Source of the DNA: an uncultured Candidatus Saccharibacteria bacterium
GTDB lineage: Bacteria > Patescibacteriota > Minisyncoccia > Phycocordibacterales > SBAW01
NCBI GenBank assembly: GCA_964650645.1
Contig: CAZYUH010000001.1
Coordinates: forward strand, 475,099 to 539,098
DNA: 64,000 nt
Direction: 5' to 3'
The notes beneath the pieces are model-generated. The model was not told the origin of the DNA. It made no database searches and saw only the letters and a program-made list of their open reading frames with translations. How positions within the stretch are numbered: the first letter of the stretch is position 1; every line of letters starts with the position of its first letter. The translations under genes and the position numbers were made by a program. Shown one piece after another: positions 1 through 37,107 of this stretch.

Positions 1-407
1 AGCTCGCTTAACAAATGCGGGGGAATCGCCGGCTCGCCGCTCCTGGGGTCGCTGTTGTATTTTTCATGTTGTATGCCAAGCTCATTGAGCGGATAAAACC
101 ACCAAAGGTTCCTGGCTTCCTCGATAAACTCCGGGTTGACATCGAAATTATCGCGATAGCCCTTCTCTGCGAGAAAGCACATCTCGCTCGCGGGTATGCG
201 CCAATCGCAATCGGTTATCGCTTTGGCTATCTTTTCAAGGTTCTCTTCGAAACGCGGGCGGGTGAGGAACGCGAGCACCTCCTCATTTCCTCCTCGCTCC
301 CGTATTTTCTTAATGAAGAGTTCGAGCAATCTCATGCCCATACCCATGCCGCGCACCATCGTTCCAACTTCCGTTCTTCTGGCCATTATGGCCTCCTGTG
401 CGCCCAT
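1..407 (-). CDS. hypothetical protein, N-terminal part (runs off the window start); possible acetyl-CoA-binding-like motif RGMGMG
   Basis: Reverse-strand ATG at 407..405; open to position 1; protein-like composition; not in the ORF track because it has no stop. The opposite-strand ORF 15..467 is low-complexity (HAHTHAAHH) and judged spurious. Confidence 0.3.
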   Translation of the reverse strand, partial: MGAQEAIMARRTEVGTMVRGMGMGMRLLELFIKKIRERGGNEEVLAFLTRPRFEENLEKIAKAITDCDWRIPASEMCFLAEKGYRDNFDVNPEFIEEARNLWWFYPLNELGIQHEKYNSDPRSGEPAIPPHLLSE

Positions 408-469
408 CCTGCCTCCCCAATGGAGACGCTCGGGTCTGTTGAAATTATACTATTTTTAAAAAATTAGTC

Positions 470-492
470 AAGCATCAAGAATGCTTTTTTTT
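470..492. terminator. rho-independent terminator (AAGCAT-caaga-ATGCTT + T8)
   Basis: 6-bp stem followed by tttttttt, directly downstream of the minus-strand gene ending at 494. Confidence 0.6.
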
Positions 493-493
493 G

Positions 494-1180
494 CTAGCGA
501 GCACCCGTCGTCGTCGCCTGCGTGGAGGAAGCGAGGGTCTCGAGCTCTGGGACGAGTTCCTGCACTTCGGCAAGGTTCTTGAAGCCGTAGACCGGCGCGT
601 GGCCGCCGACAACCATGGAGGGCAGCCTGCTGCCGTCCACCTTGTTGAGGTGTATGAGGGTCTTGAGCGCGCCGAGGTCGAGGTTGTAATCGAAGGAGTA
701 TACGCGAAGCGTGGGGTAGGTCTGGCGCAGGTAGGTGAGCACGTCGCCCTGGCGGCCGCAGTCCGTGCAGTCGCCCTCGTTGGAGTAGAAATAGAGTATG
801 AAGACGGGCTTCACCTTGGGGCACTTCTCGCTTATCTGGCGCATGAGGAGGTAGTCCTTCATCTGCAGGAGCGAGTACTGCTTCTTTATCTGTATCACTT
901 CCGCGTTGTCGATGCCCAGGTTCTGCTCGGCGACGCTGAGCCGGCCGGCGAGGTTGTTGAGCTCCTCGGAGAGGACCGGGTTCTGCGATATGGCGGCGCA
1001 GTCGAGGTTACCCAAAAGCTCGAACTGCGTCTCGGTCGAGAGGATGTCCACGGAAATCGCCTCCTGCGTGGTGCGGATGTCGGCCAGGCGCCTGGCGTCG
1101 AGCCTGGTCGTCAGGTAGAAAGCCGTGCCGAATATGGCGACCGTGATGATGAATGATAGGAGGTATTTTTGCCAGGCCAT
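494..1180 (-). CDS. membrane-anchored thioredoxin-fold protein (CxxC = CTDC)
   Basis: Internal ATG at 1180 gives MAWQKYLLSFIITVAIFGTAFYL (N-terminal TM); motif SNEGDCTDCG; 16 nt downstream of the GT2 gene, so same operon. Confidence 0.55.
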   Translation of the reverse strand: MAWQKYLLSFIITVAIFGTAFYLTTRLDARRLADIRTTQEAISVDILSTETQFELLGNLDCAAISQNPVLSEELNNLAGRLSVAEQNLGIDNAEVIQIKKQYSLLQMKDYLLMRQISEKCPKVKPVFILYFYSNEGDCTDCGRQGDVLTYLRQTYPTLRVYSFDYNLDLGALKTLIHLNKVDGSRLPSMVVGGHAPVYGFKNLAEVQELVPELETLASSTQATTTGAR

Positions 1181-19877: not shown

Positions 19878-20001
19878 GCCGATTGACTGGCCGCGGCCGC
19901 GGGCGTACTGTTTTTAGCAGTTGTTCTCGTTTTGCGTACAGCTCCGAGCCGCCGGACTGGTCCGGCATGTGCAATATCTGCAACTACGGGGAAACCGCGT
20001 G

Positions 20002-20241
20002 ATGGAAGCGGAGGAACTGGTCCGACTGCCGGCGAACGCCGGCGCGGTCCAAGTAAAAAAGAAGGCAAAGAGCCCCTGCAAGGGGTGTCAGCACAATATC
20101 AACGGCACGTATGCCGTCGATTACGACGACCATGACGTCGAGATAGGCTGCAGGGCGCGGCAGCGCCTCAGCCGGGGAAAGCTGTTCGTCCCGGTCAAGC
20201 CGACCGAGACGGCGAAAAAAGGCTGCAAGTACCGCCTGTAA
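20002..20241 (+). CDS. small Cys-containing hypothetical protein (79 aa; CKGC...C...C)
   Basis: ATG 20002; CxxC plus two further Cys; followed by hairpin terminator 20278-20325. Confidence 0.35.
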   Translation: MEAEELVRLPANAGAVQVKKKAKSPCKGCQHNINGTYAVDYDDHDVEIGCRARQRLSRGKLFVPVKPTETAKKGCKYRL

Positions 20242-20346: not shown

Positions 20347-20574
20347 ATGGTAGTCAGGATGAGACACACCCGGGCGCACACGGCTAACCGCCGTTCGCAC
20401 CATGCCCTCAAGGCCCAGAAGCTCGCGGTATGCGAGTGCGGGGCCCCGCGCGTGTCCCATCGCGCATGCCCGTCCTGCGGGCGCTACCGCGGCCGCGTCG
20501 TAGTCGACGTGGCGGCCAAAGCGGCCGCCAAGTCGGCCCGCAAGGCAAAGAGGGATAAGAGCGAGGCGCGCTAA
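20347..20574 (+). CDS. rpmF: 50S ribosomal protein L32 (zinc-binding form) with Lys/Ala-rich C-terminal tail
   Basis: [23 protein letters not shown] aligns with the L32 N-terminus (MAVPxRRTSKxRxRxRRxH); CECG...CPSCG zinc ribbon. Confidence 0.75.
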
Positions 20575-20641: not shown

Positions 20642-21562
20642 ATGGCCAACAGGCACCTCTCACGCTCAGTCGTTCTCCAGACACTCTTCGAGTGGGACTT
20701 CCGACATCTCTCGGCGGACGACTGCCTCGAATCCCTCGAGCGCATCGCGGAGGAGTCCGTGCCGCAGGGCGGCGACGCGCCGTTCATGGAGGACCTCCTG
20801 AGGGGCGTGCTCAGCCGCGCCGCGGACCTCGACATGGTCATAGGCAAGGCCGCGCCCGAGTGGCCCATTGACCGCATCGCGCCAGTTGACCGCAACGTCC
20901 TGCGCCTCGGGCTCTACGAGCTCCTGTTCGCCGACCGCGAGAAGGTTCCCGCAAAGGTCGCCATCAACGAGGCGATAGAGCTCGCCAAGAGCTTCGGCGG
21001 CGAGCATTCGGGCCGCTTCGTCAACGGGGTGCTCGGCGCCGTCTACAAGGAATTGGGCGAGCCGGGCAAGGACGAGGTGTCCAAGAAGAAGAAGGAGGTT
21101 CCGTGGGAGGAGATGCCGCAGGAGCGCCTGGTGGGCGCGGTCGTCTACGCCCGCTCGGGCAACGAGCTGTACCTCGCGCTGGTGCACGACATCTTCGGCC
21201 ACTGGACCCTCTCCAAGGGCAAGCTCACTCCCGATGAGACGCCGGAGGCCGGCGTGGTGCGCAAGATAAAGGAGGAGATAGGCTTGAATATCGAGCCCGA
21301 GCTGAGGCTGGGCGAGAACGAGTACGTCGCTTCCGACCCTGCGGCCGGCAAGAAGCGCAAGCACGTCATCTACTTCCTCGCGAAGTCGCCGTTCGCCGAG
21401 GTGGAGCTCGCTAAGAAGGGCGGCTTGGACGACGCGCGCTGGTTCAAGCTCCAGGACGCGCTCGAATTGAATTTTTACGAGGACATGCTTCCCATCGTCA
21501 TGAAGGCTGTCGAGCACCTCGGCGCCGATGCGAAAGGTAGAGCGAAGCTGAACGCTAATTAG
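20642..21562 (+). CDS. nusB: transcription antitermination factor NusB fused to a C-terminal NUDIX hydrolase domain (306 aa)
   Basis: N-terminal about 150 aa contains KVAINEAIELAKSFGGEHSGRFVNGVLGAV (NusB signature); C-terminal part has a Nudix box KGKLTPDETPEAGVVRKIKEEIGLNI and Nudix fold. Confidence 0.85.
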   Translation: MANRHLSRSVVLQTLFEWDFRHLSADDCLESLERIAEESVPQGGDAPFMEDLLRGVLSRAADLDMVIGKAAPEWPIDRIAPVDRNVLRLGLYELLFADREKVPAKVAINEAIELAKSFGGEHSGRFVNGVLGAVYKELGEPGKDEVSKKKKEVPWEEMPQERLVGAVVYARSGNELYLALVHDIFGHWTLSKGKLTPDETPEAGVVRKIKEEIGLNIEPELRLGENEYVASDPAAGKKRKHVIYFLAKSPFAEVELAKKGGLDDARWFKLQDALELNFYEDMLPIVMKAVEHLGADAKGRAKLNAN

Positions 21563-21570
21563 ACACATGT

Positions 21571-22263
21571 ATGGCAGCCGATTTCAATACGTTCCAGCAA
21601 AAGCTCGGGCTCGAGTTTAACGAGCCCGACCTCCTGCGCCAGGCCTTCACGCACCGCTCCTACCTCAACGAGCACCGCGGCGAGGTAAAGGGCCACAACG
21701 AGCGGCTGGAGTTCCTGGGCGACGCCGTTTTGGAGCTCATCGCCACGCACTTTTTGTACGAGAAGTTCCCGACGCAGACCGAGGGCGACCTCACGGCGTA
21801 CCGCGCCGCGCTCGTCAACGCGGTAACGTGCGCCGAAGTGGCGCAGGAGCTGGGCATGAACGACTGCCTCCTCTTGTCGCGCGGCGAGGCGAAAGACACC
21901 GGCCGCGCGCGCGGTATCCTCCTGGCGAACGCCTTCGAGGCGCTTGTCGGCGCTATTTACCTCGACCAGGGCTACGACGCCGCGCGCGAGTTCATCGCGG
22001 CGCACCTGTTCCCGAAAATAGACAACATCATCCAGAAGAAGCTCTGGCTCGACGCCAAGTCGTCCCTGCAGGAGAAAGTGCAGGACGTCGAGGGCGTGAC
22101 GCCGTCCTACAGCGTTTTGCGCGAGTGGGGGCCCGACCACGACAAGCACTTCGTCGTGGGCGTGCACGTGAAGGACAGGCTTTTGGCGCAGGGCGAGGGC
22201 AAGAGCAAGCAGGAGGCCGAGCAGGACGCCGCGCGCGCGGCGCTCGACGCGCGCGGGTGGTAG
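21571..22263 (+). CDS. rnc: ribonuclease III
   Basis: ERLEFLGDAVLEL catalytic signature and C-terminal dsRBD (KSKQEAEQDAARAAL). Confidence 0.92.
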   Translation: MAADFNTFQQKLGLEFNEPDLLRQAFTHRSYLNEHRGEVKGHNERLEFLGDAVLELIATHFLYEKFPTQTEGDLTAYRAALVNAVTCAEVAQELGMNDCLLLSRGEAKDTGRARGILLANAFEALVGAIYLDQGYDAAREFIAAHLFPKIDNIIQKKLWLDAKSSLQEKVQDVEGVTPSYSVLREWGPDHDKHFVVGVHVKDRLLAQGEGKSKQEAEQDAARAALDARGW

Positions 22264-22337: not shown

Positions 22338-22745
22338 ATGCGCTTGCTTGCCGCGCCCGTTCTTGCTGCCGCGCTGTGCGCCGCGACTCCCGCGTGCGCG
22401 CAGACCGTCCAGCTTTTCTCCCTCGTCGACACTCTTGTCGCGCTGTACGGCGACTTCAACGGGGTGCCGGTCCGCGAGGTGGAGCGCAGGCTCTGCCGGG
22501 AGCTTCTGCTTGTTTCGCCGGAAAAGGTGCGCCCCTGCGCGGAGGAAAGCGCGCGGCGCAACGACGCGTTCGATAAGGCCGTCAAGAGCGTCGAGTCGGC
22601 GCGCAAGGAGGGCTCTCTTGACGAGCGGCGGCGTCTGCTCGAATCGGCGGCGTCATCCCTCTTGTTCGTCAAGAGCGACTTGTATCGGTGGACCAGGCTG
22701 TACTTCCGCGAGACCGCGGAAAGGCTTGGAGGGCGCGGGACGTGA
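22338..22745 (+). CDS. small secreted hypothetical protein (135 aa)
   Basis: AGGAGG RBS 7 nt upstream; signal peptide MRLLAAPVLAAALCAATPACA; terminator hairpin 22758-22795 downstream. Confidence 0.55.
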   Translation: MRLLAAPVLAAALCAATPACAQTVQLFSLVDTLVALYGDFNGVPVREVERRLCRELLLVSPEKVRPCAEESARRNDAFDKAVKSVESARKEGSLDERRRLLESAASSLLFVKSDLYRWTRLYFRETAERLGGRGT

Positions 22746-22805
22746 GTCCGCGCCAACGGGCCCGGCGGCAATCCGCCGGGCCTTTTTCTTGCTACAATAG
22801 GCGCA

Positions 22806-25010
22806 ATGCGGCTCAAATCGATAGAGCTCACGGGCTTCAAGTCTTTCGCCAGGAAGACGCCCCTTAGCTTCGAGTCGTCCATAACCGCCATCGTCGGCCC
22901 CAACGGCTCGGGCAAATCGAACGTCGCCGAGGCGTTCCGCTTCGCCCTGGGCGAGCAGTCCATGAAGAGCATGCGCGGCAGGCGCGGCGAGGACCTCATT
23001 TGGAACGGCTCGGCGCACGTGCCGCGCGGCGGGCGCGCCTCGGTCAAGCTCGTCTTCGACAACGCCGACCGCATGCTCAACCTCGATTTCGACGAGGTGT
23101 CGATAGAGCGCGTGGTGCACCGCGACGGCGGCAACGACTACCTGCTCAACAACTCCCCGGTGCGCCTGCGCGACGTCGCGGAACTCCTGGCGGGCGCCAA
23201 CATTGGCGCGTCGGGCCACCACATCATCTCCCAGGGCGAGGCGGACAGGATACTGTCGGCCGGCGCGCGCGAGCGGCGCGAGATGGTCGAGGACGCGCTC
23301 GGGCTCACCGCCTACCTGTACAAGCGCGAGGAGGCGCAGCGCAAACTGGAGAAGACCGGCGAGAACAGCGCCAAGGTCGAGGCCCTGCGCCGCGAGCTCG
23401 CGCCCCACCTGAAGTTCCTGAACGGCCAGGTGCGCAAGATAGAGGAGGCGCAGGGCCTGCGCGACGAGCTGAAAGCGCGCTACCTCGAGTACTTCAAGCG
23501 CGAGAGCGTGTACCTGAAGCTCAATGAGGCCGAGATTGCCGGGGCGCTCGACGCTCCCGAGCGCGAGCGCGCCGAGCTCGATTCGCGCGTCGAGCGCCTG
23601 CGCGCCGACCTCTCGCGCCAGCACGGCGGCGACGCCCAGACCCGGGAGCTCATGCGCCTCGAGCAGGAAGGCCGCGCGGCCGCGCATAGGCGCCAGGAAA
23701 TTCACCGCGAGCTGGGCCGCATCGAGGGCTCCATTGCCGCGCACGAGGCCATGGGGCAGGCAGAGGAGTCCATACCGGCGTCCGAGGCGCGCGCCTTCGG
23801 CGAGCGGGTGCTGGCCGAATTGGAGCTTCCGTACAACGACATGGAGGCGTTCAAGAAGCGCGTGTCGGCGCTCATCATACTCGCTGGGGAGTTCCTGCGC
23901 CGGCTTTCGCGCGCGAGCGATGCGAAGGGCGAGAGCGCCGCCGGGCTCAGGGCGAAGAAAGCCTCGCTCGAAGAGGAGCTCAAGGCGCTCGGCGCGGCCG
24001 AGGACGAGGCTGCCAGGGCGGTGGCAAGCCTGCGCCAGGCGATAGAGAGCGAGAAGGACGCCTCGCGCGACGCCGAGCGCGAGCTCTTCTCCGCCATGGC
24101 GCGCCGCAGCGAGCTTGAGGCGCGGCTTTCGGGCCTGCGCGCGCGCCGCGACGCGCTCGCGCGCGAGCGCGAGGCGCTCAGGCGTGAATTGGGGGAGGCT
24201 GCGGCGCTCGTGGGCGCCGATATCGCGGGCTACGAGACGCACGCCCTTGAAGGCTTCGATGCGGACGCCGCGCTCGAGGAGCGCTCCAAGCAGGAGGAGC
24301 GCCGCCGCAAGCTGGAGCGCATGAAGATAAAGCTGGAGGAGTCGGGGCTGGGGAACTCGTCGGACATCCTGCGCGAGCACAAGGACACGGCCGAGCGCGA
24401 CGAATTCCTGGCCCGCGAGCTCGCCGACCTCGCGCAGAGCCGTGAATCGCTCGAGGGCCTCATAGGGGAGCTTACCGCCACGCTCGAGTCGCGCTTCAGC
24501 GAAGGGGTCGAGAAGATAAACCGTGAATTCGACGCCTTCTTCAAGCTCATGTTCGGCGGCGGCGCGGCGTCCCTGCAGGTGGTGAGGGAGAGGAAACCGC
24601 GGCGCGGAGCCTCAGAAGAAGAGGGCGGCGATGACGAGGACGATGCCGCGGCAGAGCAGGGGATAGACCTCTCCGTGTCCCTGCCGCACAAGCGCGTTAA
24701 GGGCATACAGATGCTCTCGGGCGGCGAGCGCGCGCTTACGTCCATCGCCCTCATATTCGCGATGAGCCAGGTCAACCCGCCGCCGTTTTTGATACTGGAC
24801 GAGACCGAGGCGGCGCTCGACGAGGCCAATAGCCGGCGCTACGGCGACATGATAGAGACGCTCGCGAAGCGCTCCCAGCTCATCGTCATTACCCACAACC
24901 GCGAGACCATGAGCCGCGCGGGCATTTTATACGGCATCACCATGGGCTCAGACGGCGGCTCCAGGCTCTTGTCGGTCAAATTCGACGAAGCGGTGGCGGT
25001 GGCGAAGTAA
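22806..25010 (+). CDS. smc: SMC-family chromosome segregation ATPase, short form (734 aa)
   Basis: N-terminal Walker A (GPNGSGKSN), long coiled coil, C-terminal signature LSGGERALTSIAL and Walker B (LILDETEAALD); TACAAT -10 hexamer 6 nt upstream of the ATG suggests a leaderless mRNA. Confidence 0.85.
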   Translation: MRLKSIELTGFKSFARKTPLSFESSITAIVGPNGSGKSNVAEAFRFALGEQSMKSMRGRRGEDLIWNGSAHVPRGGRASVKLVFDNADRMLNLDFDEVSIERVVHRDGGNDYLLNNSPVRLRDVAELLAGANIGASGHHIISQGEADRILSAGARERREMVEDALGLTAYLYKREEAQRKLEKTGENSAKVEALRRELAPHLKFLNGQVRKIEEAQGLRDELKARYLEYFKRESVYLKLNEAEIAGALDAPERERAELDSRVERLRADLSRQHGGDAQTRELMRLEQEGRAAAHRRQEIHRELGRIEGSIAAHEAMGQAEESIPASEARAFGERVLAELELPYNDMEAFKKRVSALIILAGEFLRRLSRASDAKGESAAGLRAKKASLEEELKALGAAEDEAARAVASLRQAIESEKDASRDAERELFSAMARRSELEARLSGLRARRDALAREREALRRELGEAAALVGADIAGYETHALEGFDADAALEERSKQEERRRKLERMKIKLEESGLGNSSDILREHKDTAERDEFLARELADLAQSRESLEGLIGELTATLESRFSEGVEKINREFDAFFKLMFGGGAASLQVVRERKPRRGASEEEGGDDEDDAAAEQGIDLSVSLPHKRVKGIQMLSGGERALTSIALIFAMSQVNPPPFLILDETEAALDEANSRRYGDMIETLAKRSQLIVITHNRETMSRAGILYGITMGSDGGSRLLSVKFDEAVAVAK

Positions 25011-28438: not shown

Positions 28439-28873
28439 ATGGAGAAGGGGCTTATACGCGTATCGGTCATCGCCTTCTGCCATGACGGCAAGGGCAGGTA
28501 TCTCCTGGGCAAGCGCTCGGCGAATTGCCGCGACGAGCAGGGCAGATGGGATCCGGTCGCGGGCGGCGGCCTCAAGTTCGGGGAGACGGTAGAGGATGCC
28601 GCGCGCCGCGAAATAATGGAAGAAGGCTGCGCGGAAGCGAAAGAGCTGGAATTTCTCGGGTATCGAAACGTCTTCCGCGAGCAGGACGGCCAGCCGACGC
28701 ACTGGGTGGCCATGGACTTCAGGGCGCTTATAGACCCGGCGGAGGCGAAGATAGGCGAGCCGCACAAGTGCGATGAGCAGAAGTGGGTTACTATCGATGA
28801 GCTTGAAAGGATGCCCGACCTGCACTCGCAATTCCCAGTATTTATAGAAAGCTACCGAAGCAAACTTGTATGA
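28439..28873 (+). CDS. NUDIX hydrolase (144 aa)
   Basis: Nudix box GGGLKFGETVEDAARREIMEEGCAE; start at internal ATG 28439 (MEKGLIRVSVIAF); the 5' part of the track ORF lies over repeat A. Stop overlaps the trmD ATG (ATGA). Confidence 0.8.
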   Translation: MEKGLIRVSVIAFCHDGKGRYLLGKRSANCRDEQGRWDPVAGGGLKFGETVEDAARREIMEEGCAEAKELEFLGYRNVFREQDGQPTHWVAMDFRALIDPAEAKIGEPHKCDEQKWVTIDELERMPDLHSQFPVFIESYRSKLV

Positions 28874-29978: not shown

Positions 29979-30255
29979 GAATAGCGAAACCAACGGGCAG
30001 GCCGCGGGGGCCATGAGTGAGTATCGAGTGGGGGTTTCGATACAACTAAAGAGGTGTGGATACTTTCACCTAAAGCTTCATAAGGAAGCAGGGGAGCCCT
30101 TTGGGCGACCCGGATTTTTCGTGTTTTGGCTGTGTGCATAAGTCAGTTGACTCCTAAGCATTTGTGCGAATAGCCATTGCCAGGAAAGAGAGAGGTGGGT
30201 GCGTCGGGCGCAGGTGCGGGTCCCTTTATCAACGTCCCTTCATCTTACAATCATC

Positions 30256-37107
<6,852 letters not shown>

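Follow-up and report, generated by a model that had tools for sequence, protein, structure and literature searches.

A NusB–Nudix fusion widespread in Parcubacteria, with an ApnA hydrolase-like domain and a relaxed Nudix box

An ultra-small bacterium of the Parcubacteria and hundreds of its relatives carry the transcription antitermination factor NusB joined, in a single ORF, to a C-terminal Nudix domain. We analyzed this fusion in a 64,000-nt stretch (the window) of a genome of roughly 0.75 Mb. The fusion is widespread and conserved. It appears to be undescribed, as literature searches, which included a review of the Nudix clan (PMC5389931), found no account of a NusB–Nudix fusion, and sources annotate the protein solely as "transcription antitermination factor NusB." A survey of its spread, suggested with the original prediction from this DNA, returned at least 599 Nudix-motif matches when one genome from each GTDB species was scanned. 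All named ones are from Patescibacteria/Parcubacteria, under the names Adlerbacteria, Kaiserbacteria, Nomurabacteria, Yonathbacteria, Campbellbacteria, Zambryskibacteria, Taylorbacteria, Paceibacterota, and Minisyncoccia. Clustering at 50% identity gave 134 clusters at E ≤ 1e-30. Of 150 listed representatives, some 56 contain both domains at full length, with identities as low as 32%.

The first 150 or so residues had been predicted to be NusB. PF01029 matches residues 7 to 136 (118 bits against a cut-off of 23.1, E = 5e-34, profile positions 3–133 of 133), and the NCBIfam nusB equivalog TIGR01951 matches at 125.5 bits against a cut-off of 88.35. PF00293 (NUDIX) matches residues 164 to 285 (E = 6.6e-15, 55.7 bits against a cut-off of 21.1). 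Both Pfam domains named in the original prediction are thus found above their cut-offs, and both peptides that it quoted occur in the 306-aa protein. The Lys-rich linker that it placed between the halves is also present (SKKKKE), and two AlphaFold2 models fold both halves well with this low-confidence segment between them. The first model, built from 14 sequences, has a pLDDT of 83.3 and a pTM of 0.50, with residues 141 to 151 below pLDDT 50; the second, from 82 sequences, has a pLDDT of 89.6 and a pTM of 0.61, with residues 141 to 149 below 50. A fixed interdomain arrangement was rejected, as the deeper alignment lifted pTM from 0.50 to 0.61 only and left the linker below pLDDT 50. The models therefore back two domains on a flexible tether with no fixed packing.

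The identical 306-aa protein, with the same neighbors, is present on 17 contigs from independent samples in JGI and Logan assemblies. Both Pfam domains occur in all 120 of the closest homologs (73–100% identity), and NusB and Nudix form one ORF in one frame in 79 of the best 80 loci of at least 599, the exception ending at a contig edge. No split nusB/nudix pair was found in these best 80 loci, and no compositional break in GC separates the two halves. An artifact in which a frameshift or misassembly joined two genes, a concern raised with the original prediction, found no support and can be dismissed on the 17 identical contigs, the 79 single-frame loci, and the continuous GC content. Stand-alone versions of the fusion-type Nudix domain were also rejected: apparent "Nudix-only" proteins are truncated fusions, as in P0218, a fusion truncated where its contig starts, beside adapter sequence.

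Table 1. Features of the fusion gene, its neighbors, and an unfused comparator. Positions are those of the window, except in the last row, where they are those of the comparator contig.
Feature	Coordinates	Strand	Details or basis
rpmF (ribosomal protein L32), upstream neighbor	20347..20574	+	PF01783
nusB-nudix fusion ORF, complete	20642..21562	+	306 aa, ATG..TAG
NusB domain, residues 7–136, seven helices	20660..21049	+	Pfam PF01029
Codon of F126, equivalent of E. coli NusB F122	21017..21019	+	Alignment to E. coli NusB
Linker, residues 137–163, Lys-rich (SKKKKE); 141–151 predicted disordered	21050..21130	+	pLDDT
Nudix domain, residues 164–285, ApnA-hydrolase type	21131..21496	+	Pfam PF00293
Nudix box GKLTPDETPEAGVVRKIKEEIGL, residues 193–215, non-canonical	21218..21286	+	Read from sequence
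Codon AAG of K208, in place of the first Glu of REUXEE	21263..21265	+	Sequence and alignment
rnc (RNase III)	21571..22263	+	PF14622, PF00636, PF00035
Terminator-like hairpin after orf135, 11-bp stem, 10 G-C pairs, T-rich tail	22758..22783	+	Consensus scan only
rpmF, stand-alone nusB (144 aa), and rnc of L088 (Logan SRR22315509 contig)	202-1026		No Nudix domain

The predicted conserved position upstream of rnc is borne out: rnc lies downstream in 80 of the best 80 loci of at least 599, and the gene order rnhB-rpmF-fusion-rnc-smc is kept in 54 of these 80 species loci. The start of rnc is 8 nt past the fusion stop codon, and the two genes are probably co-transcribed. The terminator-like hairpin farther downstream likely marks the end of the transcription unit, judging by its match to the consensus. 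An RNase R/II gene also lies near the fusion locus. An Rfam scan of the 64-kb window for an rRNA leader, BoxA context, and other RNAs returned nothing at gathering thresholds, and a sigma-70 promoter scan around the fusion gene found no sites. Several neighboring genes have features of their own. Directly after rnc, at 22338-22745 (+), orf135 encodes a conserved protein of 135 aa with no Pfam match and an N terminus resembling a signal peptide (MRLLAAPVLAAALCAATPACAQ); every related contig has it among its gene calls, and the strongest terminator-like hairpin of the region comes next. The SMC-like protein encoded at 22806-25010 (+) has just 734 aa, with SMC_N head halves at residues 3 to 717. 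A typical bacterial SMC has about 1200 aa, so that a much shorter coiled coil is implied here. Between rnhB and rpmF, at 19980-20241 (+), a small gene of 79 to 88 aa with no Pfam match is called in related contigs, and its length differs among otherwise identical loci.

The all-helical NusB fold of the predicted model superposes on solved NusB structures. F126 corresponds to E. coli NusB F122, the α7 aromatic that stacks on BoxA U8 (PMC3177189), and is invariant in both family alignments checked. In alignment to E. coli NusB, the S10-pocket residues Y18, E75, and E81 are matched by F16, D77, and D83, which are conservative changes. Relative to E. coli NusB, known from the NusB–S10–BoxA complex (PDB 3d3b, 3r2c/3r2d), the fusion has about 170 extra C-terminal residues (linker and Nudix domain) and a Phe for Y18; binding of S10 and BoxA by the fusion is predicted, and its NusB half should function normally. 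In L088, a low-GC relative, an unfused NusB of 144 aa is encoded in the same rpmF-nusB-rnc slot, and its gene overlaps rnc by 11 nt. No second NusB was found within the 64-kb window of the fusion. Because the fusion shares this slot with a stand-alone NusB, it occupies the orthologous nusB position and its Nudix domain is a C-terminal addition; by position, the fusion protein is probably the organism's orthologous NusB. L088 also offers a useful natural unfused comparator. A precedent exists in RsmB/Sun/Fmu, in which a NusB-like N-terminal domain is fused to an rRNA-directed enzyme, the 16S rRNA m5C methyltransferase. There, however, the partner is a SAM methyltransferase, and the NusB-like domain is not the antitermination factor but a paralog of it.

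In sequence and structure, the Nudix domain is closest to Thermus thermophilus Ndx1 (1vc8), Aquifex aq_158 (3i7u), Chlamydia CT771 (4ilq), Mycobacterium tuberculosis Rv2985 (9cxx), and human NUDT2 (3u53). The domain contains the HWTxxKG motif. Y228, 13 residues past the box and aligned to the Tyr of Ndx1, is the X-loop Tyr, which Dunn et al. took as a marker of ApnA specificity (reviewed in PMC5389931), and alignment makes Y279 the second stacking aromatic, equivalent to human Phe128. H187, K192, and K240 fall on the P1-phosphate contacts, where Lys, His, and Lys have assigned roles in Ap4A hydrolase (PMC4734340); this mapping of ligand residues was made on sequence alignment and the AlphaFold model, not on a ligand complex. 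Across 55 divergent representatives, W188 and K192 are each kept in 51, Y228 in 44 (Phe in six others), K240 in 41 (Arg in seven others), Y279 in 51, and W267 in 52, and H187 varies in distant members (Lys, Tyr, or Phe). That the best-conserved positions are the adenine and phosphate contacts of Ap4A hydrolases argues for a retained nucleotide pocket.

The five matching proteins are stand-alone enzymes with a canonical REUXEE, whereas the fusion domain is joined to NusB, its box reads RKIKEE, and throughout its family the catalytic Glu residues are relaxed. In both sequence and fold the fusion protein belongs to NusB and to the Nudix superfamily. It resembles ApnA hydrolases most closely, yet it is not filed as an ApnA hydrolase because its box is not canonical. 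Membership in the RppH, NudC, or MutT groups was rejected, as their matches are below threshold. RppH and NudC, which are RNA 5′-end hydrolases, have the Nudix fold in common with the C-terminal domain of the fusion, and a 5′-end role for the fusion is conceivable because E. coli RppH hydrolyzes ApnA and removes Np4 caps. Bacterial RNA can be capped with dinucleoside polyphosphates (NpnN), which RppH, a Nudix enzyme, removes (PMC7044304, PMC8833179).

The complete Nudix fold expected from the original prediction is borne out by the PF00293 match and by an α/β/α fold; the accompanying Nudix box departs from the canonical form at one position. Set against the consensus GX5EX7REUXEEXGU (PMC5389931), the box reads G193-x5-E199-x7-R207-K208-I-K-E211-E212-I-G214-L215, with Lys for the glutamate of "RE" and every other consensus position kept. 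In NUDT9, this first Glu of REUXEE coordinates the catalytic Mg2+, and the RILGEE mutant has no activity; in human TRPM2, the NUDT9-H domain (RILRQE) binds ADP-ribose but leaves it unhydrolyzed (PMC6461439). Position 208 is Lys in 86, Glu in 33, and Ser in one of 120 close homologs; in 75 species loci it is Glu in 32, Lys in 23, Ala in 12, Val in five, Gly in two, and Ile in one; and Glu is found in 12 of the 55 divergent representatives. With K208, the set of metal-binding catalytic Glu residues in the protein is incomplete; the canonical RE is kept in about 40% of closer species. In the query's wider clade, E199 is kept in 71, R207 in 73, E211 in 70, and E212 in all 75 of the 75 species loci; in the divergent representatives, R207 is found in 31, E211 in 28, and E212 in 41 of 55. 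Eroded boxes such as RIVKKE, KIMKEK, and QVMKEK occur in distant members, the full canonical residue set is present in only nine of 56 representatives, and four family members of about 300 aa fall below Pfam NUDIX. On a neighbor-joining tree of the NusB domain with 131 taxa, which is crude but the same for all sites, at least 27 state changes are needed at the first Glu, 15 at E211, and 10 at E212, versus two each at K192 and W188 and four at Y279.

A sub-clade of the family has a five-residue insertion (IGDAPE) between the Gly and the Glu of the box, which turns G-x5-E into G-x10-E, and the canonical RE glutamate is present in 16 of its 17 species loci. Since the insertion sub-clade is mostly RE and the query-type sub-clade combines normal spacing with RK, the two deviations largely segregate. 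The window also encodes a stand-alone Nudix protein (28439-28873, +; 144 aa; PF00293, E = 3.6e-19) whose box, G-x5-E-x7-REIMEE, matches the consensus in full and which has no specific NCBIfam assignment. A canonical box is thus maintained in a stand-alone paralog of the same genome. Its gene is placed between the rpsP/KH-domain genes and trmD, a slot that is usually occupied by rimM.

The best explanation, to which we give somewhat less than an even chance, is that the fusion is an orthologous NusB with a tethered ApnA-type domain that binds nucleotides or RNA 5′ ends, its catalysis weak or absent. A NusB of the parcubacterial lineage would have gained a C-terminal Nudix domain of the diadenosine polyphosphate (ApnA) hydrolase type through a flexible Lys-rich linker. 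The NusB half would bind BoxA RNA and S10 in the rRNA antitermination complex. The Nudix half, which appears to have kept the residues with which Ap4A hydrolases sandwich adenine and contact phosphate but has a weakened metal site (RK, not RE), would be a tethered binder, at best a slow hydrolase, of an adenine-nucleotide polyphosphate. Candidate ligands are a free Ap4A-type alarmone or the ppp- or Np4-capped 5′ end of the nascent leader RNA, and either would be coupled to rRNA transcription and processing. A conserved nucleotide pocket combined with relaxed catalytic Glu residues marks Nudix domains that changed from an enzyme into a ligand-binding module, as TRPM2 NUDT9-H, DBC1, NrtR, and NUDT21 did; the last three are non-enzymatic Nudix proteins (PMC5389931). 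In TRPM2 NUDT9-H and in NrtR, as in the fusion, a Nudix domain is covalently joined to a non-enzymatic host protein. TRPM2 has kept its pocket while its box is degenerate in some lineages, being canonical and active in invertebrates and RILRQE and inactive in human. These are ADP-ribose-type Nudix domains, hosted by an ion channel and a wHTH repressor, so the analogy is one of principle only.

A bifunctional active enzyme, in which NusB would deliver an Ap4A/ApnA hydrolase or an RNA 5′-ppp/Np4 decapping activity to the transcription complex and the leader RNA, is the main rival, though on the unlikely side. The near invariance of E199, R207, E211, and E212 in the query's clade suggests that the metal site may still function and the domain may still be catalytic. 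The nearest structures are all active ApnA hydrolases, the removal of dinucleoside polyphosphate caps by RppH provides a relevant Nudix activity, and rnc and the RNase R/II gene are nearby. A Nudix protein with an altered box can also be active, as is GDP-mannose hydrolase (PMC5389931). However, the residue replaced by Lys here, and drifting among Lys, Glu, Ala, Val, Gly, and Ile in the family, is the Mg2+ ligand without which NUDT9 is inactive; the box is widely degenerate in distant members; and the RppH models (NF001936/NF001937/TIGR02705) match weakly, none above 18 bits where the cut-offs are 116 or more. Of the earlier proposal that NusB is coupled to a putative hydrolase, perhaps for decapping or alarmone turnover, the coupling holds as a one-ORF fusion, and K208 and the drifting first Glu count against competent catalysis.

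Erosion of the box in many lineages, and the four members of about 300 aa that fall below Pfam NUDIX, would also fit a nucleotide-independent scaffold, in which the Nudix domain serves as a protein–protein or RNA-binding surface, for example by replacing an rrn antitermination partner such as SuhB or in the manner of the RNA-binding NUDT21/CFIm25. The known non-enzymatic Nudix proteins named above, NUDT21 with its box GX5EX7RLX2EIXGR among them, lend this reading precedent. We nevertheless regard it as improbable, as the best-conserved positions are those that contact adenine and phosphate in Ap4A hydrolases.

It is quite improbable, in our judgment, that the fusion is mechanistically neutral, with a housekeeping Ap4A hydrolase and nusB as independent halves that share expression in a streamlined genome. 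Such a fusion would not be expected to persist throughout many groups of Parcubacteria (at least 599 matches) with no split in the best 80 loci, and the erosion of catalytic residues would not be tolerable for an independent housekeeping hydrolase. Within the clade, moreover, the linker is as conserved as the domains (0.67 versus 0.67–0.68). The flexible linker and the lack of confident interdomain packing (pTM 0.50–0.61) would fit a neutral fusion, as would the presence of rpoB and rpoC in one ORF of the same genome. That ORF (30199-37107, +) encodes 2302 aa, with RNA polymerase β (Rpb2, residues 38–1066) and β′ (Rpb1, residues 1085–2187) in frame across a junction with a short linker (…DVELMRDGAPVGGSRKTPGAEASDFDAVRIR…) and no stop codon. 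Fusions of rpoB and rpoC of like kind are found in Helicobacter and Wolbachia. The occurrence of one here suggests a tendency toward gene fusion in this genome.

For the tethered nucleotide- or 5′-end-binding domain that we favor, the partly degraded catalytic site suggests that a signaling nucleotide or an RNA 5′ end is read at the transcription complex. Taken further, parcubacterial rRNA antitermination complexes would contain a built-in sensor, in which the attenuated Nudix domain reads Ap4A-type alarmones, or the ppp/Np4-cap status of the leader 5′ end, and directly tunes rRNA transcription or RNase III processing. We consider this extension unlikely as it stands. If true, NusB would have a regulatory input without counterpart in model bacteria, and an enzyme would have evolved into a sensor as in TRPM2.

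NusB is a core, near-universal transcription factor that, to our knowledge, has so far been studied solely in its small, single-domain form. In the Parcubacteria, a very large lineage of the candidate phyla radiation, the annotation name "NusB" hides a Nudix domain. Recombinant protein would make the fusion easy to test. Should the domain bind Ap4A-type molecules or capped RNA 5′ ends, or cleave them slowly, alarmone or RNA-cap biology would be physically tied to rRNA antitermination and processing, and the orthologs, whose boxes range from canonical to fully degenerate, would form a natural series for the study of how an enzyme becomes a sensor.
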